Assembly: GCA_965243025.1 (NCBI GenBank)
Contig: CBDETY010000003.1
Coordinates: forward strand, 864,001 to 928,000
Length of the DNA: 64,000 bases
Direction: 5' to 3'
From: Candidatus Latescibacterota bacterium
Lineage (GTDB): Bacteria; Latescibacterota; UBA2968; UBA8231
The notes beneath the pieces were generated by a model. It ran no database searches and was not told the origin of the DNA. It saw only the letters and a list, made by a program, of their open reading frames with translations. A program made the translations under genes and the position numbers. This document shows positions 1,327 to 26,379 of the stretch, one piece after another; position 1 is the first letter of the stretch; each line of letters opens with the position of its first letter.

Positions 1327-1372
1327 GGGTTGGAGTCCCTCCACCTATCTGAACGCTGATCTTGGCTCTCCA

Positions 1373-4180: not shown

Positions 4181-4249
4181 TGATTGTAGTCTTTCTAACG
4201 TATCACAAACTGAGTCGGTTACAGGTCGGAATCATCGATACAGCATCAG

Positions 4250-4407
4250 GTACCGCTGAAGACGGACAGGCAATCTTCGATGGCCTCGTTACAGGTTGGT
4301 CAACAGCTCTTCGAAGGACTCCCCTTGAATTGCACACCCGGGAATAGAGGGTACTTCTGTCCAGTAACCGCCCTTCTCAGCTGATGGTTCACAATTTTTA
4401 ATTTCAT
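4250..4407 (-). pseudogene. HicB-like antitoxin remnant
   Basis: ATG at 4407 overlaps the res stop (ATGA). Reading across two frameshifts gives MKLKIVNH/AEKGGYWTEVPSIPGCAIQGESFEELLTNL/EAIEDCLSV, the HicB-like signature. 3' end approximate. Confidence 0.75.
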
Positions 4408-7400
4408 CGGTTTCCTCTCGGTTGGTTTGATATTTCCGCCGTTTCAGTATCCGCCTGGGTTCGAAACCCCTCAAGCAAAAGATCGAACGCGGCTTCCACC
4501 TCGAAAACATCGGTGAACTCGGCGAAGGCCCAGCGCCCGTAGTCCCCGTGGTTGTTCACCCCGGGGACCCAGTAGGTGTCCATGGTCGCCTTCTTGTCCT
4601 TGGCGTCTTCCCTCCGGTACCCCTTGATTTCGACGACCAGGTGCAGAAGATCGCCGTCCCCCCGGCCGTCGTCGACTTGAACGATGAAGTCCGGCAGGTA
4701 GGTCCGCGTTTCCGAGCCGGACCGGTAGGGGACCTCCAGGCCGAGGTTGTGGTTCTTGACGTAGGACCTCACCTGCGGGTGGGACTCGGCGACCCGGCAG
4801 AACTCCGCCTCCCAGTCGCTGTCGAGGACGACCCAGTTGACGTGGCAGCGGCGGGAGTCGGTCTCGTACCGGCTGGTTTTAGTGGTGTTGAAATTTACGT
4901 GGGCGGTGGAACCGACGGGATTGTACGGATCGAGCACCGCTTTAACCGGGCGGGTGCCGATCCCCTCCCGGGTGATGGCCGCCGCGATCTTCTCGCAGGC
5001 CCTGTCCGCCAGCTCCTGGTACATGAGCTGGGCTGGCCAGGTGCCCCCCTTGCAGACGAGACAGCCGTCGAGCCACTGCTTGGTGATCCGCTTGAGCTGC
5101 CCGAAGAGATGGAGCTTCGGCTCCTCGCCAGGGTCGCGGTACTTGGTGTAGAGCAGGCGCTGGGTCAGGTGGAACAGCAGGGTCGAGGTGCGCAGCCCGT
5201 TGGTGTGAACGAGGTCGAGGTCGACCCCCTCGCCGATGATCCCCTGGACCAGTGTCTTCGAGGGACCGATCAGGTCGGGCGTCAACTCCAGCACCGAGTC
5301 GTCGTTGAACCCGGCTTCGAGCCGCTCTTCCGGCAGCTCCACCCGGTACCCGGCCACCCGCGGGAAACGGATCTCCAGCGCGTCCCTTTCCGGGCGCACC
5401 GCCCGCACCTGGACGGTCTCCCGCGGCGGCTTCGCCGCAGCCACCACGGGCCTGGCGGTGAAGTCGAACGGGATCCCCAGGACGTCGGCGTACTCGACGT
5501 CGAACAGGCCGTCTTCGTTGAGGTCGTAGGACTGCCGCCGCAAAGCGCGGCCCACCACCTGCTCGCAGAGCAGCTGCGTCCCGAAGGCGCGGACGCCGAG
5601 AACGTGGCTGACGGTGTTGGCGTCCCACCCTTCGGTCAGCATCGACACCGACACCACGCAGCGGATCGAGTCCCCGAGCCGGCCCTCCTTGCCGACGGTG
5701 TTCATGACCTCCCGGAGGAGATCCTGGTCGGTGATCTTCTCGGCCTGGCGGCGGTCGCCGGTGCGCTCGACGATCTCGCGGCGGAAGCGCTCGATCTCGT
5801 CGGCGGCCATGTCGCGGAAGTTCCTGTCGAGCGCCTCCCCGGACTCCAGCTGTTCGCTGTCGATCAGGAGGGTGCGGGGCCGCGGGAGCCGGGTGCCGTC
5901 GTCCTCGAAGTTGCGGAACAGCTCGAGGCGCCCGTTCTCGAACGTCTTCGAGCCGTTCTCGTTGTCGCGGTGGAAGCCGGAGATGTAGTCGTGGACCAGC
6001 TTGGAGGTCGAGGTGTTGTTGCAGACGACGATGAAGCAGGGGGGCACGGAAATCCCCGCCTCCTGCATCATCTCGAAGTTCTTCCGGTAATGGCCGTACA
6101 GCGCATCCAGGGCGTTCTGCAGCCGGACGGGCAGGCTCAGGGGATCGAGGTGGCTGGACTTGCCCCGACCCTTCTTCGGCATGTCCTCGCGGATGTGCTC
6201 CCACAGGTTGCGGAACTTCGGCATGTCGCCGCCGGGGATGTTGTCGGCCACCGGCACGCGGGGCAGCTTGACGATGCCGCACTCGATGGCATCCATGAGC
6301 GAGAAGTCGCACATCGTCCACGGGAACAGCGTGCCTTCGGCGTACCCGGACCCGCGCAGAAAGAAGGGGGTGGCCGACAGGTCGATCACCCGGTTGATGC
6401 CGAGCTTTCCGCCGGCCGTCTCCAGCCCTGAAATCCACAGCCGGGCGGCCTCCGTGTTCTTCTCGGCCTCCTTCCGGTCGTCCCCCTTCAGCGTTTCTTC
6501 CTCGACCTCCCCCGGCTTTTCGCGGTAGCAGTGGTGGGCCTCGTCGTTGAGGACGAGGATGTTCTTCAGGCCCATGAGCCCGGGCATGACCCTTTGCAGC
6601 ATCTGTCCCTCGGTCTCGAGGGTGGCGATCGATTCCCCCCGTCCCTGGAGCAGGGAACGGCCCCCCTTGGACAGCTCCATGCGCTCGCGCAGCTTGAAGG
6701 CGTGGTAGTTGGTGATGACGATCTTCGCCTTCTCGAGGTCGGGCAGCATGTCGTTGGGGACCAGCTCGCGGCTCTGGTAGTAGCTGTCGGGATCGTTCGG
6801 CTGCAGCACGCGCAGGCGGTCCTTGATGGTGATGCCCGGGGTGACCACGAGGAAGCCGCGCGTGAAGCGGCTGCTCTGCGGCCGGCGCACGGCGTTGACG
6901 GTCTGCCAGGCGATCAGCATCGCCATGACCGTGGTCTTGCCGGCGCCGGTAGCCAGCTTGAGGGCGAGCCGCGGCAGGTCGGGGTTGGCCTCTTCGTTGG
7001 CGTTGGCCAGATGGTCGAGGAAGCTCCGGCCGGCTCGCGTGCCGGGAGCGACCTCGGTGAGCCAGATGGCGGTCTCGGCCGCTTCCACCTGGCAGAAGAA
7101 GGGGCGGATGCCGCTGAAGCGGTGGCGCCGCCAGTGCCGGAGCAGGCGGGCGGTCTCCGGGGTCACCTGCCACCGGGCCTCCGGCAGCTCGCGCCAACGG
7201 TCGACCTGCCGGCGGACCCCGTTGATGATGGCGGTCAGGTCGTATTGCTGGCCGTCGGTCCCGAGCTTCTGAGCCTTCTGGTCGAAGACCATCGCCGCCT
7301 GCTGCGCCGACCCCTTGCGTTTTCGGGGCTTCGGAATCGGGGTGATGAACTCCGCCTGGCGGCGGCTTTCGATGGTTTTCCGGGTCGGCTGCCCGGTCTC

Positions 7401-7475
7401 GTCCAGCTCCCAGTGGCGGGACGGGCGCTCGTAGGGAGAGTTGAGGACGGGGCGCTCGAAGAAAGGATCAGTCAA
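4404..7475 (-). CDS. res: Type III restriction enzyme Res subunit (SF2 helicase-like ATPase + PD-(D/E)xK nuclease)
   Basis: 1023 aa; Walker A ATGAGKT, DEAHH, SATP, EQVVGRALR and C-terminal YLPDFIV...VEIKG. Confidence 0.92.
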   Translation of the reverse strand: MTDPFFERPVLNSPYERPSRHWELDETGQPTRKTIESRRQAEFITPIPKPRKRKGSAQQAAMVFDQKAQKLGTDGQQYDLTAIINGVRRQVDRWRELPEARWQVTPETARLLRHWRRHRFSGIRPFFCQVEAAETAIWLTEVAPGTRAGRSFLDHLANANEEANPDLPRLALKLATGAGKTTVMAMLIAWQTVNAVRRPQSSRFTRGFLVVTPGITIKDRLRVLQPNDPDSYYQSRELVPNDMLPDLEKAKIVITNYHAFKLRERMELSKGGRSLLQGRGESIATLETEGQMLQRVMPGLMGLKNILVLNDEAHHCYREKPGEVEEETLKGDDRKEAEKNTEAARLWISGLETAGGKLGINRVIDLSATPFFLRGSGYAEGTLFPWTMCDFSLMDAIECGIVKLPRVPVADNIPGGDMPKFRNLWEHIREDMPKKGRGKSSHLDPLSLPVRLQNALDALYGHYRKNFEMMQEAGISVPPCFIVVCNNTSTSKLVHDYISGFHRDNENGSKTFENGRLELFRNFEDDGTRLPRPRTLLIDSEQLESGEALDRNFRDMAADEIERFRREIVERTGDRRQAEKITDQDLLREVMNTVGKEGRLGDSIRCVVSVSMLTEGWDANTVSHVLGVRAFGTQLLCEQVVGRALRRQSYDLNEDGLFDVEYADVLGIPFDFTARPVVAAAKPPRETVQVRAVRPERDALEIRFPRVAGYRVELPEERLEAGFNDDSVLELTPDLIGPSKTLVQGIIGEGVDLDLVHTNGLRTSTLLFHLTQRLLYTKYRDPGEEPKLHLFGQLKRITKQWLDGCLVCKGGTWPAQLMYQELADRACEKIAAAITREGIGTRPVKAVLDPYNPVGSTAHVNFNTTKTSRYETDSRRCHVNWVVLDSDWEAEFCRVAESHPQVRSYVKNHNLGLEVPYRSGSETRTYLPDFIVQVDDGRGDGDLLHLVVEIKGYRREDAKDKKATMDTYWVPGVNNHGDYGRWAFAEFTDVFEVEAAFDLLLEGFRTQADTETAEISNQPRGNR

Positions 7476-8095
7476 GGCGGCAGATTCCTGCGGGTGGCCG
7501 GCGGTCGTCAGGCGAGTCGGGCAGGATTGGGAGGCCAGGAAGTTTCCGTTGGGTTAGTGGTGCTCTGGATACACATCAGAAATATAGGTCGATGAGCAGA
7601 GGTTGGGTGCGCTCTCCCGGCTTGGTGAACGGCACCGAGACTTCCGCGGCGCACGCCCTGGCGGATGGTGTTGGATTTACCGGATCACGAAGCCGTCGCA
7701 GACCACCTGGCGCACCTCGGTGGTGAACGGCGGTGAACCGAAGTGCATGGTCATGTCAGCCGCGAACCGGTTTGGCAATCCAGGACGGGGTGGTCAAGTT
7801 GGAGCACGTCGGGCGGCGCCAGAAAAACGGCCGGGTCAAGTGACGGTTTGAAAAAAGAGAAGCCCGCAAGGATTCGACTGTTGGTACATCAGCGGCAGTC
7901 TTACCCCTATCTGGATTGCCTGCGTAGCTGCCCTTTCAGGGTCCTTGATCGCGCCACTCAGGTTCCGCGTTTTTCCAAAAAATCTGGTATAACCTTATGA
8001 AAGGAAATGTAGCCCTCCCGGCTGCCTCGGTACGTTTGGCAGCTTCCGGAAGTCCTTCCAGTTAAACAACACCCTTCCCCACTGTTCCGCTCCGC

Positions 8096-8202
8096 GCTAC
8101 CGCGACGGACACCCCTATACGAACCGAATAGCTGAAAAGCGGTCTGTCGCGTGGCAACGGTCCCCGGCAGGCCGTCAGGGCCGTGCTGTGCCCTTCTGCC
8201 GG
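8096..8202 (+). promoter_or_regulatory. Two adjacent stem-loops in the leader of the HTH gene
   Basis: 8096-8110 pairs with 8142-8155 (one bulge, two G-U pairs); 8164-8170 pairs with 8196-8202 with inner stem 8177-8181/8190-8194. Function unknown. Confidence 0.45.
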
Positions 8203-8248
8203 TGTCCACCTGACCATCCACCCCCCCCAAAACATGGAGAGAATAGAA

Positions 8249-8473
8249 ATGACGCAAGATCAGCTGAAAAGGGCCAGAGACGCCCTGGGCATGAAGCAAT
8301 GGGAATTGGGCCTCGCCCTGGGTGTCAGTGAGGCCGAGGTGTGCCTGTGGGAGAAGGGAAAGCGAACGATGCCCGAAAGGTATCTCCGGCTTATGGGAGC
8401 CATCATCCACCACCAGGAACGGGGCTTGATCCTGTCCTGGAAAGCCTCAATCCACCGGGAAAGGAGGGCGTAA
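8249..8473 (+). CDS. Cro/XRE-family helix-turn-helix protein
   Basis: MTQDQLKRARDALGMKQWELGLALGVSEAEVCLWEKGKR matches the HTH_3 pattern; GGAG 9 nt before the ATG. Confidence 0.8.
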   Translation: MTQDQLKRARDALGMKQWELGLALGVSEAEVCLWEKGKRTMPERYLRLMGAIIHHQERGLILSWKASIHRERRA

Positions 8474-8695
8474 ATGGCAACCACCATCTGTGATATCTGC
8501 ACCGGGGTCGTTGCCGATGGCGAGTTACGCGGGGAGCTCAAGGTCGGAACGGCCAGTATGATGGCCGAGGGGAGGAAATTCGATGTCTGCATCGAGTGCG
8601 TGAATGGCCTTACCAAGTCCTCCCGGAAAATGGTGGCTTCTCCCTTCCGGGTCTTCGTGGACGAGGAGGGCAGAATCCGGGACACGAGGGAGTAA
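8474..8695 (+). CDS. Small CxxC...CxxC zinc-ribbon protein
   Basis: CDIC and CIEC pairs; AGGAGG SD; starts directly after the HTH stop. Confidence 0.7.
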   Translation: MATTICDICTGVVADGELRGELKVGTASMMAEGRKFDVCIECVNGLTKSSRKMVASPFRVFVDEEGRIRDTRE

Positions 8696-8847
8696 TGGTT
8701 TTCAAGCCGGTCTGCTGCGTTTGCGGTCAGGAAATCAGGCCCTGGCACCTGTTCTGGATGCCTACCCCCGGCCAGCATGTATGCATCCCCTGCAGCGAAA
8801 AGGAAGACCCTGGAGAGGAAAAAAGCACTGCCGACGATGGCGGATAG
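8695..8847 (+). CDS. Small CxxC...CxxC protein (50 aa)
   Basis: TAATG stop/start overlap with the previous gene; MVFKPVCCVC...HVCIPC. Confidence 0.55.
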   Translation: MVFKPVCCVCGQEIRPWHLFWMPTPGQHVCIPCSEKEDPGEEKSTADDGG

Positions 8848-9184
8848 TTTGTGGCAGGGGGGAATCGAGCAGGTTGGGAGGCAATGGGCTGGAGCCTCTT
8901 GTCCGTCTGTTGAGGAATGCCCCCGAGCGTAGCCTCTTGAGCCGGAAAGAGCCCTCCCGCATTTTGCCGATTCGTCAAGGCCCGCCTTCGGTTCCCTCTG
9001 CCACTATTTTGGGGATAGATGAACTTGCCTACCCCGCCTGATCGGGGTCAAGGCCGTCCAACTTCTGACAATCAAAAAAATCTGAGCAAGAAAAGCCGCT
9101 TGCCGAGTAATACGCGGTAGAAATAAAAGATGGGGAACGTGGGAAGGGGATTAACTATGCGCCCGGTTTCTCTTTTGGTCCTGC

Positions 9185-9841
9185 CTACCGAATGAGCGTA
9201 TCTGGAAACCCTACTGAAACTAGCTGCGTCTTTTCATCTGGCCCAACTTGCATCAATTGTAATTGACTCCAGTGCCCCGTTGCAAACTCTACCCGGCCTC
9301 CAGCCTCAGATTCTACTTCTTTCCCCTCTTCAGGCTTGCCCACACAGCTGTTATTGAAATACAAGGACATTGGCCTATGGAGTCTTGCAGCCGAAACTTG
9401 GTGCAACCTTCCATTACCGTCCTGGGCGAATAAAGGACCCTTGATTTCCTCAGCACGAGAGGAACTACCCAATAGAGGCTCCTGAATAAGGAGAGTTGGT
9501 TCCCTGGGATACACGTCTCCGGTTCCTCGGGCAAATCCCTCAGAGTAAATGACTCGGACTTCCTTCCAGTCTCTCCTCAATCCCTTGTATAGCATCTTGC
9601 CTATCAGTCGGTCGGCAAACCTTGAAAAGAGGAAGGACATCAATCCACTTGAAACCAGAACATGGACCACCCTAATGAAGCTATCTTTCGCTGCAGACGT
9701 GGGCATAAAGAAAAAGAATGGGACTTGGATTACCAGAAGGGCAAGGAAAACCAGGGGCTTCCGATATTTCCAAATGAGTTCTTTCATCCTGACCTGCACC
9801 TTTCTTCTACGCAGCATGTTGGGCTCGTGTATATCTATCAA
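9185..9841 (-). CDS. Hypothetical membrane protein (two predicted TM helices); true start may be internal
   Basis: 218-aa ORF in a more AT-rich tract; hydrophobic segments PLVFLALLVIQVPFFFFM and VVHVLVSSGLMSFLF. Confidence 0.6.
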   Translation of the reverse strand: MIDIHEPNMLRRRKVQVRMKELIWKYRKPLVFLALLVIQVPFFFFMPTSAAKDSFIRVVHVLVSSGLMSFLFSRFADRLIGKMLYKGLRRDWKEVRVIYSEGFARGTGDVYPREPTLLIQEPLLGSSSRAEEIKGPLFAQDGNGRLHQVSAARLHRPMSLYFNNSCVGKPEEGKEVESEAGGRVEFATGHWSQLQLMQVGPDEKTQLVSVGFPDTLIR

Positions 9842-9983
9842 CAGAGTGTCAGAGGACCTTCAAGCCCCTCATCATCCCGGCAAAATTTTCGGGCTCAGCA
9901 TTTCAGCCTGGCTCCACGCTCCCCATCAACAGAACGAACCCCTTCAATGAACTGTTGGTGAACCACCGACGAAGGAGAATACC

Positions 9984-10193
9984 ATGTCCGACGAAGTGGA
10001 TCTACCCAAGTGGATTATCCGCCGATATGCAGTGGTAAAAGACAAGAAGGTTGACCGGTTCGAAACCCTTCGGGAAGCAACGGCACACCGCCAGAAGCAC
10101 GGAGGAGAAATTCGCGAGCTCGTGTTCCGCTTGTCCGAGGTAAAGTCCCTATCTCAAAGGGTCGAGGGGTGGGTACGGGCTGATGGAGAGTGA
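9984..10193 (+). CDS. Hypothetical protein, 69 aa
   Basis: Strong SD (GAAGGAG) before the ATG. Confidence 0.6.
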   Translation: MSDEVDLPKWIIRRYAVVKDKKVDRFETLREATAHRQKHGGEIRELVFRLSEVKSLSQRVEGWVRADGE

Positions 10194-10283
10194 CAGGACA
10201 GGCGGACACCCCACTGCTCTCCTGTTCTTCACAAGCTCGCATTGATAAGCAAATCCCCCTTTTCCGGGAAAGGAAACCAGTCA

Positions 10284-10556
10284 ATGAACCACGAAACGAG
10301 AAGCAAAATCGAATCCGTATATCAGGACGTGGCCTTCGAGAAAGTTCACCTTATGGCGGACGTAGATCCAGCCTGCATTGCCATCTTCTTCAGGCACCCC
10401 GAGATGGGAGGGATAGCCCTCCCGGTGTCGGCAGTGCAGGCTATATGCCTCACCTTCGCCCTGCTGGAGTTGTTCGGAGAATCAGAGGGTATCCTTGATC
10501 CGTATCTGGACACCGCCGTGGAGGAGATCAGGAAAATGGCGCTGAAGAAAGGATGA
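10284..10556 (+). CDS. Hypothetical protein, 90 aa
   Basis: AAGGA SD before ATG 10284; in frame with track ORF 10242-10556. Confidence 0.55.
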   Translation: MNHETRSKIESVYQDVAFEKVHLMADVDPACIAIFFRHPEMGGIALPVSAVQAICLTFALLELFGESEGILDPYLDTAVEEIRKMALKKG

Positions 10557-10564
10557 CAAACACC

Positions 10565-10642
10565 CTATGGAATCACTCGCAGCATCGTAGGAATAATGGC
10601 CGCCGCCACGGCCAGCAGAGCGGCCAATAGGAACCTTTTCAT
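10565..10642 (-). CDS. 25-aa hydrophobic peptide or signal-peptide remnant
   Basis: GAAGGAGAG SD then MKRFLLAALLAVAAAIIPTMLRVIP*, directly downstream of the SWIB-J gene. Confidence 0.35.
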   Translation of the reverse strand: MKRFLLAALLAVAAAIIPTMLRVIP

Positions 10643-10669
10643 CCGGAATCTCTCCTTCACGGTTTCGCA

Positions 10670-11167
10670 TTAGCTCCGAGACTTCACCACGACTTCGTAG
10701 GCGCTCTGAATCTCCTGGAACTTCTCCCCCGCCAGCTTGACGATTCCTGCGGGAATCTCCTCGCCTGCCAGCCTGTCCGGGTGATATTCCTGGCATAGCT
10801 CCCTGAACTTCCGTTTCAGTTCCTCGTCGGACACCTCCGGCGAGCAGCCCAGAGTCTCGTAACAAGACCCCAGCATCTTCTTTTCAAACGCCCTTTCCAG
10901 CTCCTCGTCCGTTCCTGCTGAACCTCCGGAACAGGCGAACAGGTATCTGTTGACCAGCCTGGTGAACTCCAACAGGGTCATTTGATCCTTGCCGCCGCAG
11001 ATCCTTCTGAGATTGTCGTCCGCGTTGATCCTTCGCGGATTCCTTGCGTCCTGCAAACCGTTCTCCCGGATGTAGCCCCAGAGTTCCTCGACAACCTGAG
11101 CCTTCGACACCGGCTCGTCGCCGACAATGGCAGCCAGTTCCTCAGACGGCTGCAGCCGCTTCAACAT
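10670..11167 (-). CDS. SWIB/MDM2-domain + DnaJ J-domain fusion protein
   Basis: N-half LQPSEELAAIVG...VVEELWGYIRENGLQDARNPRRINADDNL (SWIB consensus); C-half YETLG...YHPD...AGEKFQEIQSAYE (DjlA-like J-domain with HPD). GGAGGG SD before ATG 11167. Confidence 0.85.
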   Translation of the reverse strand: MLKRLQPSEELAAIVGDEPVSKAQVVEELWGYIRENGLQDARNPRRINADDNLRRICGGKDQMTLLEFTRLVNRYLFACSGGSAGTDEELERAFEKKMLGSCYETLGCSPEVSDEELKRKFRELCQEYHPDRLAGEEIPAGIVKLAGEKFQEIQSAYEVVVKSRS

Positions 11168-11196
11168 ATCTCCCTCCGTCAACGAAAGGACTTTTC

Positions 11197-11508
11197 ATGA
11201 CCGAACGGATCCGTGTCTTGCCGGGAAACACCGAGAGAGTGAACTCGAACCGATTCGGCGACGGCATCTTCGCGCCGCCGGCAGGGAAATACCTTACCGA
11301 GGTGGAGGTCGTCCTGGTCCTCCATCAGCCGCCGCTTCGACCGGGACCGCCCTGCACATTCGAAATCTATCCCCGCCAGGAAAAGCTGACCATGCTGGTG
11401 TACCACGACACCCCTCAAATAAGCTGCTGCGAGGCCCAGGCGAAGGCGAAAGCCTCGCTCCTTCAGGTGTTGCAGGATCTGGAATCCTCCCTGGTTCAGG
11501 AACGGTAG
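11197..11508 (+). CDS. Hypothetical protein, 103 aa
   Basis: GAAAGGA SD before ATG 11197; part of track ORF 11044-11508. Confidence 0.5.
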   Translation: MTERIRVLPGNTERVNSNRFGDGIFAPPAGKYLTEVEVVLVLHQPPLRPGPPCTFEIYPRQEKLTMLVYHDTPQISCCEAQAKAKASLLQVLQDLESSLVQER

Positions 11509-11621
11509 TCTCGAAAGCTCCCTGGCTGATCCGATGCCGCCAGGAGGTTCTGTACGACCCTGCCGGGAATTCAGAAGAGTCAAAGGCCGCCCCGGTGGGG
11601 GCAGTGGAGAGGGTTTAGTCG

Positions 11622-11864
11622 TCAGGGATTCCTCTTCCCATCTCCCCGGTCCAGCTCGCCGGCGAGCGCTTCCAGTGCGGCTATATCGCGGCGGATCATC
11701 TTTCGGGCGCAGTCGAGGCAGTAGTGACTCCAGCCTCCCCCATTGCGGACTTTGAGCCGCTTGTCTCCGCGCTGGAGCCGATGCCCCTTATTGGCTTTGC
11801 AATTATGAGCGCGCAGAACTACGTCCACCTTCGCCGGGATGCGCAGGGATCTAATTCGTCCCAT
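11622..11864 (-). CDS. Small putative zinc-finger protein (C-x5-H...H-Y-C-x2-C)
   Basis: 80 aa; AAGGAGG SD; start overlaps the frame-corrected helicase stop by 14 nt. Confidence 0.7.
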   Translation of the reverse strand: MGRIRSLRIPAKVDVVLRAHNCKANKGHRLQRGDKRLKVRNGGGWSHYCLDCARKMIRRDIAALEALAGELDRGDGKRNP

Positions 11865-13660
11865 CGAAGACCTCCTTTTCAGCGCGCTCGACGATCCCGG
11901 CGAAATTCCGTTCGATCCGGTCCAGGTCGTCCCGGGTGAACTCGCTGCGCTCCCCGGCCTTGCGGCCCACCGCAGCGTTCACCTGCCGATCAATGGCCGT
12001 CTTGACGACGACAAAATTGGACCGGCTGAAGCGCTGGCGGTCGAGGTTCCGGGCTTCCGGGTTGACGCCGCGCTTCCGGAGAATCCGTCCGGTTTTCCCT
12101 TTGCACCCGCGTGTCGAGGTCGCCGCGCCTTGCCTGGCGCTGCTGGAGGCGGGTCATGGGAACGGGCTTCTGCTCGCCGATAGCCTGCTTGCCTTCGTCG
12201 GATGAGTACCCCTTTTCCGGAAGGACCCGGGGAGCCGCAACCGCCTCGGAGAGTTCGGGAACGAGGAGGGTTTCTTCCAGCCGGATGGCCGTCTGGCCGC
12301 GCACATCGATGCGTTCGCCCTCGCCGGAGTCACGGGGCTCGACTTCAATCTCGTCGCGGGAACGGAAATCGAGGTCCTCCGGCAGAAGCTGATCGAAGAA
12401 CTCCTGGTCGGCTCCGCTGAATTCCCGGAAATCGTCCCACCTGTTCGCGACGTTGGCACCGGCATGGAAGACGACGCTGCCTTGATTGAGAAGGTTGTCG
12501 GGGTCGTTGGGCTCGATGACGCGCATGATGCGGCCTGCGAACTGAACGAAGGGAGAGAGGTTTGCGAAGAGGCTGAAGACCGCCGCGACGGCAAGATAGG
12601 GGTGATCGAACCCCTCCCCGAGCTTTCGAACCTGGACGATCACATCCAGCTCGTGATTTTCCAGACGCTGCAGAACCTGGTCGTTGACGGCACTCTTTTC
12701 CCGCGAGTGCACAAAATCGGCGCCAAGGTCGCGGGCGCGATACGCTGCCACGATCTGGCCGCAGTGCTCGTAGTTGAGCGCCGAGGCGATGATCTTGAGC
12801 CGCCTTTCGCCGGAGGCGGTGCGGAGCTTGTCCAGCTCACGGATCGAAGCCTCGACAAGGGTGTCGAGGGTCTCGGTCGAGGTCACGATGCTGCGCCGGA
12901 AACCGGCGTCCTGCTCGCCGAGGAGACGCACTTCCTCCAGGCCGACCTCCTCCTCCTGTCCGTCCTCGCGGCGGACATAGCGCAGCGTTTCCGGGTTGAG
13001 GACCACGGCCTTGAGGCGCTTGACATAGCCTGCCTGAATGGCCGCAGACACCGAATAGGAATACAGGATGCGGCCGGCCATGACCTGACCGTCGGCGCGT
13101 AGAGGAGTGGCGCTGAAGTTGACGATTCTTGCCTGCGGAAACTGGCCTTTCAGCGTTTTCCAGCTCTGCGCGACGTTGTGGTGTCCTTCGTCGAACAGGA
13201 TGAGGTCGAAGAAATCCTCCGGCAGCCTCTGGAGCCAGCGGTTATTGTCGCCCTGCAGTTGCTGGATGTTGGTAATCACCACGTCGGCTTCTTCGAGGTC
13301 CGCCCGGTTGGTGGTCGCGCCCCGGATCCGGGCCGGCTCTGGAAAAGGAGGAGCGTCCAGGACGCCGCACCGGGTGTAAAACATGTCCCTGGCAGGGTCG
13401 AAGTCATCGTTGAGTTGCTGAGCAATCTTGACGCCGGGGGCCACGACAAGGGTGCGGGTGGAGCCAAAGGCGAAGGGGGCCAACGCGATGCAGCCGGACT
13501 TGCCGCAGCCGACGGGCAGGACGATTCCGACCTCGCGCTCCTTCTCGTCCTGGTTACCGGCGAAACGGGACAGGGCGGCGTAGGTCTCCTTCTGGGGTGT
13601 GCGAAGACGAGGGTTGTCATCGATCTGGGGCTTGAGGGTCTGGAACAGGTCGTTCTTCAT
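11851..13660 (-). CDS. SF2 DExH-box helicase with a 1-nt frameshift near the C-terminus
   Basis: Start MKNDLF at 13660; PVGCGKS, DEGHH, SATP, LGEGFD, QFAGRIMR. Removing one base from the T4 run at 12093-12096 restores a tail (...RETGRILRKRG...EKEVFDGTN*) ending at 11851. Confidence 0.85.
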
Positions 13661-13864
13661 GATATTTCCCTGTTTCTCCCGCAGGCGGTGCGGGGGATGG
13701 ATAAGGGTGGATGGAAATCTGGATGTGGAAACCAGGCAGCCGGTCGCCTGCTCCAAGGTGGCCCTGAAGCAAGGCGGAATACGTTCAGGCGGAAAAGGGC
13801 TTGTCGTACTCCCGGAGGAGCCCGAACGGAAGCCGGGGTCCCCGGTGGGAGATGACTATTTTCG

Positions 13865-13899
13865 CAGGCTTAGTGGTACCGTAGGTACCCCTAAGCCTG
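13865..13899. repeat. 35-bp near-perfect palindrome
   Basis: CAGGCTTAG-T-GGTACC-GTA-GGTACC-C-CTAAGCCTG; 15 of 16 arm positions pair. Confidence 0.85.
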
Positions 13900-14375
13900 G
13901 AGATTTAACGCCGAAACCGGATCAGGCGGGGCAACAACGGCTGCGTGGGTAACTGGCTCTCGTACCGAGGGCGTTGAAGAGGTTGGAATCAAAAAAATCA
14001 TCACTCATCAGTCTGAATCAGCAGTTCAACTACTCCTTGGTGTTGTAGGTCATCGGTGTTTCGTCATCGCAGTCGGCACCGGCTGGGAAAACTCCCTGGC
14101 CGTGAGGCCGGTGTATTCCTCGCAGGCTGCGAACCCCAGGTCGCACATCGATAGGGTCCCCGCTGAAGGGCGACCTCCTTGGCTTCCATTTTCAGTCTCT
14201 GCTACCGTCGCGCCAAGGACTGCTCTCTGAGTCCATCGGGCGATCTCCCTGATCGCCTGTCCTCAAACCGCAACATACCGGCGTGCCGGTTCCTGCGCAA
14301 TTCCTCCTGGCGGAAAAAGAAGAGGAGACGCTGAAAACATGAACTGAGACATCTCACCAGAAGAAAGGGTCTTCC

Positions 14376-14813
14376 ATGAAACTCGAAGTCGTCGAACGCA
14401 AGGTGCGGCAAATCTGGCAGGACGTATGCTCGGAGCCGCTCACCAGTCCCAACGAGGTGCTCGCCTACCTGGATACCCTCGACATCGCCTCAGCCGACCG
14501 GGAGGTATTCATCGTCCTCCACCTCGACACGCGCAATCGCGTAGTCGCACACGAGACGACCTCCATCGGCAGTCAAAACGCTTCCCTCGTTCATCCACGG
14601 GAGGTGTTCAAGGCAGCGATCCTGAAGGGAGCCACCAGCATCATTCTGGCCCACAATCATCCATCTGGAGATCCAGCCCCATCCAAGGAGGACATCGATC
14701 TCACTCACCGTCTTGTCGAGGCCGGTGGCCTTATGGGAATCCAAGTGCTCGATCATGTCGTCGTCGCTCCTCCCGGCGAAAGCGTGTCCATGAAGGAGCT
14801 CGGGATTGTCTGA
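14376..14813 (+). CDS. radC: RadC-like JAB/MPN domain protein (short mobile-element type)
   Basis: DREVF...SLVHPREVFKAAI...AHNHPSGDPAPSKED...LDHVVV; lacks the N-terminal HhH part. Confidence 0.92.
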   Translation: MKLEVVERKVRQIWQDVCSEPLTSPNEVLAYLDTLDIASADREVFIVLHLDTRNRVVAHETTSIGSQNASLVHPREVFKAAILKGATSIILAHNHPSGDPAPSKEDIDLTHRLVEAGGLMGIQVLDHVVVAPPGESVSMKELGIV

Positions 14814-15161
14814 TTTCCTGTCCAGTTGTGATCGCCATCCAGTGCTCAACTCAGTGAAAATATAACGGCCGGGTGCCAATGTGCGCAGAAACCGGATCAT
14901 GCCGGTTCCCGCAGGAAATGCCGAGGCCGGCCGCGTCGGCTGCAATCGCCAGAAAACCCCCGAAGGACAGGGCCGTGCCTCTCCTCTGTTGAATTGGTGG
15001 ACACCGATAAACTCCGATCACCGCAGTCGATCACTGTAGTAAGTAATTGTATATAGGGGAGCGGGCACCGTTTACAGCGTTCAGTCTGCCAGGGTAGAAA
15101 CCGTCTGTGGAGGGGATTCGATCCTGATAACGCTCCCCAAATCTCACACCGAAAGGAGCTC

Positions 15162-16154
15162 ATGAAAATCCTGAAACGATTCCTGGGCCGCTGGTCCAAA
15201 GCCGGCAGGGGGCTCGTCCCCGAAGGCCCGGGAAGGAACGACCGGAATGGCGTATCCCTGATCGAGCTGTTCGCCAGGTTTCCCGACGACGCGGCCGCGG
15301 AGAAGTGGTTTGAAGACGTCAGATGGAGCAAGCACATCCACTGCCCCCACTGCGGATGCTGCGGCATGATTACCGAATGCCCCCACCGCAGGCCGATGCC
15401 CTATCACTGCGGGGATTGCCGAAAGCGGTTTGGCGTTCGCACCGGAACGGTGCTGTCCCACTCCAAGGTGCCCCTGCAGAAATGGGTCATCGCCATCTAC
15501 CTGTTCCTGTCCAGTCTCAAGGGCGTGTCCAGCCTGAAGCTGCACCGGGATCTCCAGGTAACGCAGAAAACCGCCTGGTTCATGGCCCACCGCATCCGCG
15601 AGGCCTGGTCGGACCAGGAGAAGCTCTCAAGCCGGAGGGGCGAGATCGACCAGGCCTATTTCGGCGGAAAGGAGGCCAACAAGCACGCCGACAAGAGACT
15701 GCGGGAACGGTGGATGGAGGGAAAAACCATCGTCGTCGGCATGAAGGACCGAAAAACCGGCAAGGTCGCCGCGAGCGTGGTTCCTGCTGAAACTGCCGAC
15801 ATTCTGAGAGCCTTTGCCCGGAAGCATCTGAGAGCCAACGGCACTCTGTACAGCGACGGGGCCAGTGCCTTGAAGGATTTCAAGTGGCCGGGGAAATCCG
15901 AGTTCGTCATCCACTCGAAAGGCCAGTTCTCGACCGATGGGTCCCACACCAACGGCATCGAAAGCTTCTGGTCCATGATCAAGCGAGCCTACAAGGGGAC
16001 GTATCACAAAATGTCCCCCAAGCACCTGCAGCGATACATCGACGAGTTCGTCGGACGGCACAACATCCGCGACAAGGACACCCTTGATCAGATGGAAGAC
16101 CTGGTTGCCCGGATGGTAGGCAAACGGCTGTTGTATCGGGATCTGGTCAAGTAG
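15162..16154 (+). mobile_element. IS1595-family transposase
   Basis: Zn ribbon CPHC...CGDC, HTH (SSLKLHRDLQVTQKTAWFM), EIDQAYFGG / YSD / HTNGIESFWS core and HLQRYIDEF. Element ends not defined. Confidence 0.9.
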
Positions 16155-16165
16155 AAAACAGCCAG

Positions 16166-16212
16166 GACCTTCGCTGCTCCCCCCGCCTCTTCGAAGGTCC
16201 GGGGGCTTTTTT
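16166..16212 (+). terminator. Possible intrinsic terminator after the transposase
   Basis: GGACCTTCG / CGAAGGTCC inverted repeat followed by GGGGGC and a T6 run; loop is long. Confidence 0.4.
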
Positions 16213-16254
16213 GTGCCCTTTCGCAACATCAAACCGCTCAGAAAAGGAAACCGC

Positions 16255-16464
16255 ATGGTCGAACATCGCACCGTGGAGATCCAGACCGTAGAGGAATGCA
16301 CCTTCCTTTCGGGACTTCAGATACCGGGAATCTCCATTCAAGGCGACCGCCAGGGAGGCGGCACCTACGAAATCATCCTGCCCGCAGGCCGGGCAAGGCA
16401 ACTCATCGAACTGCTGTCCCGGGAGGCCGGAGGAAAGACCCCCGGGCGTCCGAAGGACATCTGA
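16255..16464 (+). CDS. Hypothetical protein, 69 aa
   Basis: AAAGGA SD before MVEHRTVEIQ; part of track ORF 16213-16464. Confidence 0.5.
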   Translation: MVEHRTVEIQTVEECTFLSGLQIPGISIQGDRQGGGTYEIILPAGRARQLIELLSREAGGKTPGRPKDI

Positions 16465-16480
16465 ACGCGAAAGGAGACTG

Positions 16481-16876
16481 ATGATTCCCAATCCCATCAA
16501 AGGCAACGGCGAACAGCGGAAACTGCTGAACTCCCTGAAACCCGTGGTCAAAATCGTCGCCGTGGTCGCGGCCCGAGAAGCGGGGGTGTACCTCTACAAG
16601 CTGGCCCTCAACAAGGTCCACACCGAGTGGATCAAGGCGAAGGTGAAGGACAAGCTGAGGGTCGTTCGCAGGGACTTCGGGATGGAAACCGACCCCGAGC
16701 CCGGTCCACGGGACACCCCCGGGATCCCTGATGACGACATCCAGAACGGCGTGGATCCGGAAGGACCCAGCCCGAGAAGTCGGGCTGCCCAGCGGGCTGC
16801 CCAACGCAGAGTGCGGGACGAAACCGGGAAGTTCGTCCGGAAAGATCCACCACGGGAAGGGGGTGATAGCTCATGA
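16481..16876 (+). CDS. Hypothetical protein, 131 aa
   Basis: AAGGAG SD; basic C-terminal RDETGKFVRK motif reminiscent of phage small proteins. Confidence 0.6.
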   Translation: MIPNPIKGNGEQRKLLNSLKPVVKIVAVVAAREAGVYLYKLALNKVHTEWIKAKVKDKLRVVRRDFGMETDPEPGPRDTPGIPDDDIQNGVDPEGPSPRSRAAQRAAQRRVRDETGKFVRKDPPREGGDSS

Positions 16877-16956
16877 TGCCAAGGTGGTTGGCGATTCTGC
16901 TGGAAGTGGCGCTGGAGGTGATTCAGATCGTGCTGAACCACTGGCGCAGCCGGTAG
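16873..16956 (+). CDS. 27-aa hydrophobic peptide
   Basis: ATGA overlap with the upstream stop; MMPRWLAILLEVALEVIQIVLNHWRSR*. Confidence 0.45.
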   Translation: MMPRWLAILLEVALEVIQIVLNHWRSR

Positions 16957-17332
16957 ATGCCGACCGAGGGGTAGGTGCAATCCGTTGCGCCTATCCTTTA
17001 GCCGGTAACGAAAATACAGGCAAGCGACGCAGCCTGGAGGGGCAGTCCTACGATGTTCCGTGTGGACGATTACATCTGCATCACCTGTGAGCCGCCATGG
17101 AAATCCGAAGGGCTCGACTGGCCTACATCATCCATCGATTCGGCCCCCTCTTGGTGAAGCCGACGGACTCCGGCCATTTCGCCGCCTTTCCGGCCGCGAC
17201 GGCTTGCTGTCCTCCCCGCAGAGAGGAAGCCGCGCGGAAATCCCCGAATTGTCGAGGAAGGTCATCACCCCGTAGCGGACTACCGCCAGCGACCGGGCTG
17301 AGTCCAGGACTCCTTGCAGAACTGTGTTGAGT

Positions 17333-17430
17333 CGGGGCTCTCATTGATGCGCAGGCTGGCCTGACTCAACCGGGGTCAGGCGCTCCCGCAGGACCTCGTT
17401 GTCTCGTTCCATCTCCTCAGCAGGTTTCAT
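17333..17430 (-). pseudogene. 5' fragment of a gene (coiled-coil N-terminus, sensor-kinase-like), copy 1
   Basis: MKPAEEMERDNEVLRERLT/LSQASLRINES; closely similar to 27367-27465. Confidence 0.5.
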
Positions 17431-17671
17431 CCCTCCTCTCCTTGTCGGGCTCGGTTTCCAAGCCAAATCGTCCGAAATGTCCATTATCCACCCCAATTTC
17501 CATAAAAAAACCGCCGAAATGGACCTTATTTTCACCGGTTTATCACTCATGGGGGAGTTATATTATTGACCCGGTCTTTTCGTGTCGCAGCCGGTTTCCT
17601 CGGCGGAATCCCCACGCTTTTCGCAAGTGGGTTGCATCCGCCCCAGCAACGCACCAAGGGAGATATCTCGG

Positions 17672-20600
17672 ATGAGAAAGCGTTCAGTGTTCCTCATGGC
17701 CTTGTTGTTGGCCGGGGTCCTGATGACGCAGGACAGTATTGCCCAGAAGATCCCCCCTTTACCCGAAGGCACCCTCGCCCGCCTGGGCAAAGGGGGAATC
17801 AGCTCGGACGACCGAGGGGTGGCCTGGTCCCCCGACGGCACGCGGCTGGCGGTGGCCGGTATAGGCGTCTGGTTGTACAACGCCCGCACCCTGTCCGAAA
17901 TCGCCTGGCTCAGAGGCGATGCGGACTATGTCCTCACGTCGGTGTCGTTTTCGCCGGATGGTCAGACCCTGGCCAGTAGTAGTGGGGACGGGACGGTGCG
18001 GTTGTGGGAGGTGGAGACCGGGCAGGAAAAGGCCGTCCTCGAAGGCCATTCGGGTCCGGTCTACTCGGTGTCGTTCTCCCCGGATGGGTCGTTGCTGGCC
18101 AGTGGCAGTGAGGACCAGACGGTGCGGCTGTGGGAGGTGGAGACCGGGCAGGAACAGGCGGTCCTCCAAGGCCATACGGGAAGGGTCTACTCGGTGTCGT
18201 TTTCGCCGGATGGTCAGATGTTGGCCAGTGGCAGTCGGGACGAGACGGTGCGGTTGTGGGATGTGGAGACCGGGCAGGAACAGGCGGTCCTCCAAGGCCA
18301 AACGCATAGGGTCCTTTCGGTGTCGTTTTCGCCGGATGGTCAGACCCTGGCCAGTAGTAGTGGGGACGGGACGGTGCGGTTGTGGGAGGTGGAGACGGGG
18401 CAGGAACAGGCCGTCCTCCAGGGCCATACGGGTGGAGTCTCCTCGGTGTCGTTCTCCCCGGATGGTCGGACCCTGGCAAGTGGCAGTAGGGACGATACGG
18501 TGCGGTTGTGGGATATGGAATCCGGGCAGCAAAGGGCGGTCCTCCGAGGCCATGCGGGGAGCGTCTCCTCGGTGTCGTTTTCCCCGGATGGTCAGACCCT
18601 GGCCAGTGGCGGTAATGACCAGAGGGTGCGGTTGTGGGATGTGGAGACGGGGCAGGAACAGGCCGTCCTCCAAGACCATACGGGGAGCGTCTACTCGGTG
18701 TCGTTCTCCCCGGACGGTCAAACCCTGGCCAGTGGCAGTTACGACCAGACGGTGCGGTTGTGGGATGTGGAGACGGGGCAGGAACAGGCCGTCCTCCAAG
18801 GCCATGCGGGTGGGGTCACTTCGGTGTCGTTTTCGCCGGATGGGTCGCTGCTGGCCAGTGCCAGTTCTGACCAGACGGTGTGGTTGTGGGATGTGGAGAC
18901 CGGGCAACAAAGGGCGGTTCTCCAAGGACAGATCCAATCGGTGTCGTTCTCCCCGGATGGTCAGATGTTGGCCAGTGGCGGTTGGGACGAGACGGTGCGG
19001 TTGTGGGATGTGGAATCCGGGCAGCAAAGGGCGGTCCTCCAAGGACATAGGAGTGAGGTCGAATCGGTGTCGTTTTCCCCGGATGGTCAGACCCTGGCCA
19101 GTGGAAGTTGGGACGATACGGGGGTGCGGTTGTGGGATGTGGCCAGCGGGCAGGAAAAGGCCGTCCTCCAAGGACATACGGCTGGGATCGAATCGGTGTC
19201 GTTCTCCCCGGATGGTCAGACCCTGGCCAGTGCCGGTAATGACCAGACGGTGCGGTTGTGGGATGTGGAATCCGGGCAGCAAAGGGCGGTCCTCCAAGGC
19301 CATACGGGTTTGGTCGAATCGGTGTCGTTCTCCCCGGATGGTCGGACCCTGGCAAGTGGCAGTTGGGACGATACGGTGCGATTGTGGGATGTGGAGACGG
19401 GGCAGGAACAGGCCGTCCTCCAAGGCCATACGCGAAGTGTCTACTCGGTGTCGTTCTCCCCGGATGGTCAGATTTTGGCCAGTGGCAGTTCGGACGGCAC
19501 GATTCTGCTGTGGGATATGGCCCCCTACGTCCCCTCCACCATCACCCCGGCCGTTCCCCAGAACAATAACCCCTTCCTATTACCCGAAGGCGCCCTCGCC
19601 CGCCTGGGCAAAGGGTACCTTTATGGGGACGGCCGAGCAGTGACCTGGTCGCCCGACGGCACGCGGCTGGCGGTGGTCAGCAGCATCGGCATCTGGCTCT
19701 ACGACGCCCATACCGGTGCTGAATCCGCCCTGCTCGGCCATGCGGGCGTCACTTCGGTGTCGTTTTCGCCGGATGGGTCGCTGCTGGCCAGTGGCAGTCG
19801 GGAGGGGACCCTTCGACTGTGGGACGTGGCCAGCCCGGAACAGGCCGTCCTCGAAGAGCTATACGGGGGGTGGGTCAGTTCGGTATCGTTTTCCCCGGAT
19901 GGGTCGCTGCTGGCCAGTGGCGGTCAGGACGGAACCATTCGATTGTGGGACGTGGCCAGCGGCCACCAACAGGCCGTCCTCGAAGGCCATACCGACTGGG
20001 TCCTTTCGGTGTCGTTTTCCCCGGATGGGTCGCTGCTGGCCAGTGGCAGCCAGGACGAGACGGTTCGATTGTGGGACGTGGCCAGCGGCCACCAACAGGC
20101 CCTCTTCGAGGGTCATACGGCCTTGGTATATACGGTGTCGTTTTCGCCGGATGGGTCGCTGCTGGCCAGTGGCAGTCGGGACGAGACGGTTCGATTGTGG
20201 GACGTGGCCAGCGGCCACCAACAGGCCGTCCTCGAAGGCCATACCGGCTGGGTCCTTTCGGTGTCGTTTTCGCCGGATGGGTCGCAGCTGGCCAGTGGCA
20301 GTTTTGACAAGACGGTTCGATTGTGGGACGTGGCCAGCGGCCAGGAACAGGCCGTCCTCCAAGGCCATACGACGTTGGTCCTTTCGGTGTCGTTTTCGCC
20401 GGATGGGTCGCAGCTGGCCAGTGGCAGTACCGACGGGACCATTCGATTGTGGGACGTGGCCAGCGGCCAGGAACAGGTTGTCCTCCAAGGCCATACGACG
20501 TTGGTCAATACGGTGTCGTTTTCGCCGGATGGGTCGCAGCTGGCCAGTGGCGGTACCGACGGGACCATTCGACTGTGGGAGGTGGCCAGCGGCCACCAAC

Positions 20601-21685: not shown

Positions 21686-21823
21686 CTTGGCGGGGAGGGA
21701 TAACGCCCAAAGCGAACCGGCCCCCGGTTTGAATGTCCCGGAGGTCATTCTATTCCCGAGGCGGGATGACAGGGGGAATCTAGCCGCCTTCGGGACCCCA
21801 CACCCCAAAAAGAGGTAGCTCGG

Positions 21824-24610: not shown

Positions 24611-25183
24611 TTAGCCAGGTGTCCCGACCCTCATCCCCTCCCCGATCAGAGCCGGCCTCCGATCCACCGTGCCGATTTCCCAAGAGGGAGTGCAAGGCAA
24701 CGAGAGGATCCCTCGGGAATCGTCCCGCTCCTGTATTCTCCGTAGGAGAATGTCTTCTGCAGCGTTGTCTCGCCAATACCATGCCAGGGCACCCACGAAC
24801 CGGATTCCTGCCTGATCTCTCCGTCAACCACCAGAAAGATCATTCCGAATGGGGTCATCAAGGGCGGCGAAGCGCGGCGATTCTGCGGCGCGTATTGGCG
24901 GCGATTGTGAAGGCCTGGCCCAAGGTGCAGGTCACGTTGCGAGGGGACTCTCACTTCAGCACCCCGGAGGTCCACGAGGTGTGCGAAGAGTATGGCCTGT
25001 CGCTTATCCGGGGCAAGGCACCCAACTCCAAGCTGCACGAACTCGGGGTGCCGCGGATAGAGCAGGCGCGGGCGCAGGCGGGAAAAGTGCGGCAAAGTGG
25101 AGTCGGTGCGGCTCTTTACCAGTTTCTTTTACCAAGCCAAGAGCTGGAAGCGCCCGCAGCGCATCCTCTACAAGGCCGTGAGG

Positions 25184-26068: not shown

Positions 26069-26379
26069 GAACTCGTAGACGGGCCGGACTCCGAGTCGGC
26101 CTCGCGAGCGAACCAGGCCGTGGCTTTTGCCAGGATCTCCCGTTCGATACGCAGTTGCTTGTTCTCACGGCGAAGGCGCCGCAATTCCTCCTGCTCCGGA
26201 CGGGAGGGGCCGTCGCGGCGCACCCCCTCATCGCGTTCGGCCTGGATCACCCAGTTGCGGATCGTCTGCCCGGACGGCTCGAATTCCTTGGCCAGCGACT
26301 CCGGACTACGACCCGCCCGTACCAGTTCCACCATCTGTTGCCGGAATTCGGGCGGATAAGGGGAATGGGATTTCGGCAT
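26065..26379 (-). CDS. IS3-family transposase OrfA
   Basis: YPPEFRQQMVELV...HTH...EELRRLRRENKQLRIEREILAKA; ATGA overlap with orfB. Confidence 0.93.
   Translation of the reverse strand: MPKSHSPYPPEFRQQMVELVRAGRSPESLAKEFEPSGQTIRNWVIQAERDEGVRRDGPSRPEQEELRRLRRENKQLRIEREILAKATAWFAREADSESGPSTSS

Follow-up and report, generated by a model that had tools for sequence, protein, structure and literature searches.

The window analysed here is a stretch of 64,000 nucleotides (nt) from a Candidatus Latescibacterota bacterium (contig CBDETY010000003.1, positions 864,001 to 928,000 of the forward strand), and the subject of this work is a pair of adjacent minus-strand genes in it, one encoding a helicase and the other a small zinc-finger protein (Table 1; positions are those of the window). 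The helicase matched the Pfam families ResIII (E 3.2e-23), DEAD (E 3e-06) and Helicase_C (E 1e-05) and no others, and thus no nuclease family by Pfam. The Walker A (GCGKSG), DEGHH, SATP and QxxGRxxR motifs are invariant columns in an alignment of 39 helicase sequences. An earlier reading made from the letters of this DNA (the sequence-only reading) had described a helicase with complete motifs and no visible nuclease, and the Pfam matches and the invariant motif columns agree with that description. The small protein contains the stretch ..AHNC-x5-H-RLQRGDKRL..WSHYCLDC.., and translation of its open reading frame (ORF) gave the gene of 80 amino acids (aa) that had been described.

The co-occurrence of the two genes, which the sequence-only reading had proposed to check, was found. 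A scan of genome contigs, taking one genome per species, gave 63 helicase loci at 53-74% identity, and when their six-frame translations were searched with a profile of the small protein, 61 of them had a small-protein ORF on the same strand directly after the helicase; in L033 the helicase is truncated, and L055 lies at a contig end. The small gene starts inside the end of the helicase gene, overlapping its stop by 8 nt in 25, 14 nt in 19, 11 nt in three and 1 nt in two of 51 loci, and translational coupling of the pair is therefore indicated. The small ORF was also present in all six plasmid loci examined, two of which have helicases only 33-37% identical to that of the window, in 11 of 24 loci from IMG/VR (including all 10 close relatives) and in the one related genome that carries the helicase (G004). 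No further gene is conserved beside the pair across the 63 loci. The pair is thus a real, strongly conserved and translationally coupled two-gene operon, and it is horizontally mobile. Complex prediction of the intact helicase and the zinc protein of locus L004, each given its own alignment, gave an ipSAE of 0.00 in both runs, which were made without controls, and has no bearing either way.

The helicase of the window is probably a genuine frameshift mutant. Three-frame translation placed the missing helicase C-terminus in the neighbouring frame, with the frame change near position 12095, and each of three DNA alignments against intact homologues (L072, L004 and L053) gave a 1-nt gap at the window run GGGAAAACC (minus strand; plus-strand T-run 12093-12096). 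Homologue C-termini carry on where the window ORF leaves frame, the shifted-frame C-terminus aligns with them, and repairing the frame gives a protein of ~606 aa like the homologues. A word-index search scored 8000 candidates and retrieved 2180 helicase relatives at E<=1e-3; lengths of 603-607 aa and identities of 69-78% to the window helicase prevail among the best 120. The repaired helicase gene (TAG at 11851-11853) and the small gene (ATG at 11862-11864) share 14 nt, and three-frame translation, DNA alignments and the sequence itself agree on this overlap, which the sequence-only reading had already proposed for the corrected stop. Logan contigs from four public runs (two samples of one study) cover 11600-13800 with 0 differences and 0 gaps; as the contigs of the four runs agree, the extra base is very likely real, although these runs may be the ones from which the assembly was made. 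Runs labelled sponge or marine metagenome also hold small shares of this stretch. The one-base insertion cuts off the last ~90 residues of the helicase and uncouples the two genes, and since these residues belong to a conserved domain, the window helicase is probably defective.

A programmed frameshift at the A-run was also weighed and discarded: with AGG GAA AAC as the zero frame, GGGAAAA falls outside the X XXY YYZ register, the shift would have to be +1, there are only four A, and L072, L004 and L053 have no extra base there. A 561-aa homologue on a 6973-nt contig (P0010) ends in a shifted frame at a site that differs from that of the window. Taken together with the window copy, this homologue indicates that frameshifted helicase alleles may recur, or that both may be assembly errors. 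Scanning 10500-14500 for promoters and terminators gave no more candidates than shuffled sequence does, and a repeat search of 7400-17600 returned short, chance-like repeats, with no conserved operator-like repeats around the window operon.

Table 1. Features of the window and of two groups of related loci (window positions unless a locus is named).
Feature	Position	Strand	Remarks
Helicase ORF	11990-13660	-	ATG start at 13660; 556 aa unrepaired; stop codon 11990-11992
Helicase, part in original frame	12097..13660	-	RecA-like domains 1 and 2, disordered linker, start of C-terminal helical domain
Frameshift site	12093..12096	-	A4 run, A3 in intact homologues; one extra base
Out-of-frame tail of unrepaired ORF	11990..12092	-	No counterpart in homologues
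Rest of helicase C-terminal helical domain	11851..12092	-	Shifted frame only; ...TGRILRKRGVNPEA...AEKEVFDGTN, stop TAG 11851-11853
Small gene	11622..11864	-	80 aa; basic Cys22-His28-Cys49-Cys52 zinc finger (~10-50), then long helix (50-76)
Ribosome-binding site AGGAGG of small gene	11872..11877	-	7 nt before ATG, inside helicase coding sequence
Restriction operon	1-7475	-	SIR2_2 protein (cut by window start), 935-aa N6_N4 DNA methylase, 1023-aa BPTD_3080-family restriction endonuclease (NCBIfam 1368 bits)
SWIB/MDM2 (E 8e-22) and C-terminal DnaJ (E 7e-13) fusion gene	10670-11182	-	440 nt downstream of small gene
RadC-like JAB gene	14376-14813	+	Divergent from pair
IS1595-family transposase	15162-16151	+	Beyond RadC
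DDE_Tnp_1_4 transposase fragments	24619-26729	+	Flanking region
Rep-helicase-zinc operon	L064:920-3837; L070:2342-5127		L064, Klebsiella 5.9 kb plasmid; L070, Serratia 6.2 kb plasmid
Kinase loci of Actinomycetota	e.g. L034:5938-7734, L044:6374-7951		L032, L034-L036, L038-L040, L042-L049

The small protein matched nothing in Pfam, NCBIfam, PHROG or PADLOC (in Pfam 0 families even at E<=1), and searching PDB sequences with its profile gave nothing meaningful. A word-index search found seven relatives, a number that understates the size of the family; profile searching of 1.84 billion cluster representatives retrieved 448 at E<=1e-3 and 195 at E<=1e-10. Among the best 150 of these representatives, 148 are 44-115 aa long and the other two 132 and 185 aa, and no fusion to a large protein was found; the typical length across the family is ~72 aa. 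In 50 diverse sequences the conserved positions are C22, H28, C49, C52, H20, G33, L37, R43 and Y48, and the N-terminus is conserved as M-x-R-x-K/R-S-L. H20 is replaced by Thr in the enterobacterial plasmid copies, so that the zinc ligands are most likely C22, H28, C49 and C52; H47, two residues before C49, is not among the columns conserved in at least 90% of the sequences. The protein is basic (median isoelectric point 9.8), with a net charge of +7 in the finger and a neutral helix. At the DNA level, the window shares the stretch AGGAGGTCTT at the ribosome-binding site with L072 and L053, and in L004 two bases of the hexamer are different.

AlphaFold2 modelled the small protein with confidence (mean predicted local distance difference test, pLDDT, 90.6); the model has strands at residues 11-15, 35-41 and 44-49, short bridges at 20-21 and 29-30 and a helix at 50-76. 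In this model C22 and H28 appear to lie in a knuckle between the short bridges and C49 and C52 at the strand-helix junction, which we read as a treble-clef-type arrangement. Foldseek against the PDB gave no match at E<=1e-3. Its top rows are ligase III alpha, PARP-1 Zn1 and Zn2 and a C1 domain (E 0.6-2, probability 0.82-0.96, TM-score ~0.48). VIA-align against 48,161 representatives ranked the ZNRF1 RING (Z 5.3), PARP-1 Zn2 (Z 5.2; 58 residues, 3.2 A), Zn1 (Z 4.6) and ligase III (Z 4.3), and in a second VIA comparison 10 of the top 12 rows were PARP-1 fingers (Z 4.6-5.5); overall, the VIA alignments to PARP-type fingers reached Z 4.3-5.5 over 54-63 residues. These scores and the Foldseek E of 0.6 or worse are low and fall in the range that the tool calls common. 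BFVD returned only weak matches, to uncharacterised phage proteins and a few Zf-PARP proteins.

The sequence-only reading had compared the spacing of the small protein with the PARP-type finger, and this comparison finds weak support. PARP-type fingers (PARP-1 Zn1 and Zn2, ligase III alpha) are the commonest named fold among the best structural matches, and the small-protein domain resembles them in being basic and in having a beta-hairpin with conserved Arg/Lys. By contrast, its zinc ligands follow C-x5-H...C-x2-C (CHCC), while the zf-PARP pattern is C-x2-C...H-x2-C (CCHC), and the protein has an extra long C-terminal helix. The Trp that had been taken as part of the 'W.H..C' match is not conserved in the 50 sequences, so that this element of the comparison falls. 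Using hmmscan with Pfam-A, the zf-PARP profile (PF00645) did not match the 80-aa protein at E<=0.01 or at E<=1, and no PARP or ligase III chain was found at E<=10 when PDB sequences were compared with the profile of 50 small-protein homologues. By profile and ligand pattern the small protein thus lies outside zf-PARP, yet it may work like such a finger. As the structural scores lie under the caution mark of the tool, the PARP likeness is the best available lead and not a finding.

The intact helicase of L004 was modelled over its 606 aa (mean pLDDT 76). The model has a RecA-like domain 1 (~1-210), an insert (216-285), a RecA-like domain 2 (290-400), a disordered stretch (405-470) and a C-terminal helical domain (475-603; block pLDDT 80-91 from ~510). 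Its best PDB matches by Foldseek were RadD (E 1.8e-16), followed by XPB, RECQL5, SauUSI and HsdR, and the RadD-like arrangement of two RecA domains was found at a TM-score of 0.44-0.47 over ~420 columns. The C-terminal domain (140 residues) had no Pfam family and no PDB sequence match; Pfam on 34 such domains gave only sub-threshold scatter (MerR_1 in 10 of 34, a RecX three-helix family in 5-6 of 34).

RadD (YejH of E. coli) is the best match of the helicase core (E 1.8e-16 to 8.6e-15 for 8h5y, 6jde, 8h5z and 7r7j), and the two are alike in size (~560-590 aa against ~606), in having two RecA-like domains and a C-terminal domain, and in having no nuclease. Identity to RadD is only 18-20%, however, and the RadD family NF053632 of NCBIfam matched residues 41-383 with 31.1 bits, far from its cut-off of 720. 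In RadD the zinc-binding element sits in the same chain, and RadD belongs to the core genes of the chromosome; the present zinc finger has a coupled gene of its own, in a pair that is mobile. XPB forms the second group of structural matches (E 9e-14 to 1e-12), with no relationship at the sequence level. XPB is a double-stranded DNA translocase working with a separately encoded partner (archaeal Bax1, TFIIH). Bax1 is a nuclease of a few hundred residues, whereas the partner here is a 72-aa zinc finger. The NCBIfam and PADLOC matches of the helicase were all weak and partial (RadD, type I and IV restriction helicases, DpdF and PbeA), and they are far below the curated cut-offs or limited to one RecA-like domain. 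Nor does the helicase correspond to an R subunit of type I or III restriction: ResIII is present, no nuclease family was found, and methyltransferases lie beside only some of the loci.

Hachiman (HamAB), Gabija (GajAB) and Helicase+DUF2290 likewise consist of a helicase and one partner gene and are mobile, residing in defence islands and in cargo regions of P2/P4 type (PMC9122126). The partner in those systems is a nuclease or another effector (see also PMC13069673), whereas the pair described here shows no effector domain, and the PADLOC models of the three systems do not match it. We found no description of the pair or of the small protein in the literature; the covered parts of PMC13069673, PMC9122126 and PMC13586616 treat other helicase systems only, and their supplementary tables, which lay outside those parts, could list the family. 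We place the pair with the helicase-centred accessory modules of mobile DNA and defence islands.

The 63 helicase loci (53-74% identity) are spread over Alpha- and Gammaproteobacteria, Acidobacteriota, Planctomycetota, Nitrospira, Gemmatimonadota, Chloroflexota, Saccharibacteria, Vampirovibrio, Actinomycetota and a Eubacterium. The helicase was present in only one of 40 relatives of the window genome and in neither of two genomes of the same genus. Matches at E<=1e-50 were found in 50 plasmid records, of which 8 are conjugative, 17 mobilizable and 25 non-mobilizable; on such records the two products carry the database names 'DEAD/DEAH box helicase family protein' and 'hypothetical protein'. 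Mobilizable enterobacterial plasmids of 5.9-6.2 kb have the gene order ColE2-type Rep (Replicase and PriCT_1), helicase, zinc gene, MobC. A RelE/ParE toxin pair and MobC lie alongside the operon on these small ColE2-type plasmids.

Among the IMG/VR contigs, the pair adjoins P2-type capsid and terminase genes (L073/L074, L077 and L078), a P4-type primase, an integrase and a Gp49 toxin (L080), integrases (L079 and L081), or directly follows an inovirus Rep-SSB-Zot replication-morphogenesis module (L082). A gene with a RelA_SpoT domain lies further along in L082. The defence hotspot of P2 is placed between gpA and gpQ near cos and that of P4 next to cos by PMC9122126; the P2/P4-adjacent copies of the pair occupy cargo-type sites, which may correspond to these hotspots. 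The two genes thus travel together among phyla, plasmids, prophage-like regions and chromosomal islands.

Neighbourhoods were scanned with three called genes per side in 53 non-redundant loci (288 proteins); the other 10 of the 63 were set aside because they were duplicates or lay on very short contigs. A hand tally made without a control gave 31 loci in which at least one neighbour carries a Pfam family linked to mobility, toxin-antitoxin function, restriction-modification (R-M), other defence or anti-restriction. The defence neighbours comprise CBASS (SMODS and Cap15, L010), Thoeris (SIR2-STALD and ThsB, L037), ABC-3C (L017), DUF4238 (L035), AbiEi (L054) and R-M genes (L006, L007, L008 and L061); HepT, HipA, RES, NACHT/NB-ARC and serine and tyrosine recombinases were also found. 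These results support the view that the neighbourhoods are variable and rich in defence and mobility genes, and the defence-island-type setting that had been claimed for the pair is in line with them.

In 15 Actinomycetota loci (Table 1) the helicase is directly preceded by a same-strand Ser/Thr kinase gene, and Pkinase matched at E ~1e-40 in all eight that were scanned; an ORF of ~168 aa directly after the zinc gene is common to seven loci. These arrangements look like a variant of the module with three or four genes. A gene encoding a fused helix-turn-helix and Peptidase_M78 protein recurs near the pair in seven loci. A fused protein with an AAA_18 kinase-like and an adenylosuccinate-synthetase-like part adjoins the pair in two unrelated loci (L013:3335-4933, minus strand; L038:9944-11776, plus strand), and an adenylosuccinate-lyase-like gene is also present in L013.

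In the window, the pair lies between the SIR2_2/N6_N4-methylase/BPTD_3080 operon, which is a type III-like R-M system plus SIR2, and the divergent RadC gene. Pfam and NCBIfam searches of the window genes thus bear out the position between an R-M/SIR2 operon and radC given by the sequence-only reading. The transposases around this region (Table 1) are consistent with a variable island. In the related genome G004 the pair is found among a GmrSD_C-like gene, two DNA methylases, a PLD-like gene, a transposase and RadC; the RadC-like gene there (L072:2327-2866, minus strand) is ~6 kb from the pair, beside the transposase. The SWIB-DnaJ gene and RadC were considered as extra members of the module and rejected, as neither recurs beside the pair in the 63 loci. 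The window also encodes very large WD40-repeat proteins (by Pfam) at 17582-24028 (plus strand; 1367 aa, 26 repeats) and 30148-31134 (plus strand; 735 aa, 11 repeats), the first of which has a C-terminal tail past its repeats.

Every part of the function proposed for the pair is inferred. We consider it somewhat short of an even chance (a probability of roughly 0.45) that the pair constitutes a mobile and hitherto undescribed module for defence against phages or against other DNA that invades the cell. Defence is favoured because of the patchy horizontal distribution, the variable neighbours rich in defence and toxin-antitoxin genes, the P2/P4-type cargo positions and the intact stand-alone insertions. 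In such a module, the zinc-finger protein, the fold of which comes closest to the PARP-1/ligase III fingers that bind nicks and breaks, would recognise a DNA structure (a nick, end, gap or junction, for instance) that is typical of foreign DNA as it invades or replicates. It would then position or license the helicase, probably via the C-terminal helical domain of the latter. The helicase would spend ATP to translocate or unwind, disrupting replication or packaging intermediates or exposing them to host nucleases. In Actinomycetota, the upstream Ser/Thr kinase may add a signalling or abortive-infection output.

Several results weigh against defence. No nuclease or other effector domain was found in the helicase or in its C-terminal 140 residues, and the pair would therefore be unusual for helicase-based defence. 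PADLOC-DB v2.0.0 gave no full-length match (the best for the helicase was PbeA, E 4.6e-10, over the 83 residues 299-381; the small protein had 0), which at the same time leaves standing the earlier statement that the pair cannot be assigned to a named system. The likeness of the small protein to PARP-type fingers is weak, its Z values being below the tool's caution mark of 8 and RING and C1 fingers scoring alike. There was no match at E<=1e-20 in 50,697 GenBank phage records, and none in complete E. coli genomes by blastn with the Klebsiella plasmid copy, a DNA-level comparison from which distant copies would escape. In the neighbourhood tally, which had no matched control, 22 of the 53 loci were without any flagged family. 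On the ColE2-type plasmids, moreover, the end of Rep overlaps the start of the helicase by 11 nt, and mobility genes lie near the pair elsewhere: MobA/MobL (L022, same strand and upstream), TrwC (upstream in L044, which is mycobacterial and plasmid-like) and a coupling protein of a type IV secretion system (L058), as well as the anti-restriction genes ArdA/ArdC in L010 and L011. These neighbours fit a function for the mobile element itself.

The main rival reading, which we regard as possible though less likely than defence, is that the pair is a DNA-processing accessory of mobile elements. The finger would bind a relaxase or Rep-primase nick, or a primer-template junction, and the helicase would unwind from there, aiding rolling-circle or theta replication, conjugative transfer, or establishment in hosts whose helicases serve the element poorly. 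Besides the neighbours just listed, to which TrbI (L023) is added, the Rep-helicase-zinc operon of the small mobilizable plasmids, the 50 plasmid records with a helicase match and the position of the L082 copy directly after the inovirus module argue for such an accessory, and the absence of an effector domain suits a housekeeping role for the element. The element ICEBs1 encodes a helicase processivity factor for its own replication. However, the pair also occurs intact and alone between housekeeping genes: it stands alone with both genes intact in L025 and L063, and in these two loci and in L016 and L019 there is no Rep, relaxase or integrase within three genes. Many unrelated replicon and relaxase types accompany the pair, so that it is not bound to one replication system, and Rep adjacency is confined to one plasmid lineage (two of the six plasmid loci examined). 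The positions next to P2/P4 packaging genes and integrases, too, are typical cargo sites.

A more specific form of the defence proposal appears doubtful to us. In it, the pair would be a nuclease-less immune module of a new kind, in which a separate 72-aa bacterial counterpart of the PARP/ligase III break-sensing finger would detect nicks or ends on invading DNA and load a RadD/XPB-like translocase, which would dismantle replication or packaging intermediates; the kinase variant of Actinomycetota would then be a signalling (abortive-infection) switch.

An accessory role in DNA repair or recombination, with the pair carried as cargo, is improbable; the pair would then be a RadD-like enzyme with its zinc module in trans, acting for the host or the element on stalled forks, breaks or gaps. 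RadD is both the best structural match of the helicase and the NCBIfam family whose weak match covers most of the core, and repair-linked neighbours recur (RadC in the window and G004, UmuD/UmuC-like genes in L054 and L078, SRAP in L028 and L054, DinB_2 in L033). The low identity to RadD and the 31 bits against 720 speak against this, as does a patchy and plainly horizontal distribution unlike that of a core repair gene, and the repair-like neighbours are themselves common mobile-element cargo. A role of the small protein not as a sensor but as a DNA-binding autoregulator, or as an antitoxin-like inhibitor of a potentially harmful helicase, in an addiction-type or self-regulated cassette, is very unlikely: a small basic protein tightly coupled to a larger enzyme, frequent toxin-antitoxin neighbours and a window copy that lost the helicase C-terminus with the small gene intact would fit it, but a downstream, translationally coupled gene is more in keeping with a stoichiometric partner than with a repressor, Pfam, Foldseek and VIA-align showed neither a helix-turn-helix nor a known antitoxin fold in the small protein, and the window operon has no conserved operator-like repeats around it.

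The pair is widespread, compact and without a family assignment, and it occurs both in soil and marine lineages and on plasmids from clinical genera. Were it a defence system, it would represent a helicase-based mechanism without a nuclease, together with a new DNA-structure sensor; if it serves mobile elements, it would be a portable unwinding module that could affect plasmid host range. Should the nuclease-less immune module with a break-sensing finger prove true, eukaryotic PARP-type break sensing would be linked to a mobile prokaryotic ancestor or analogue.

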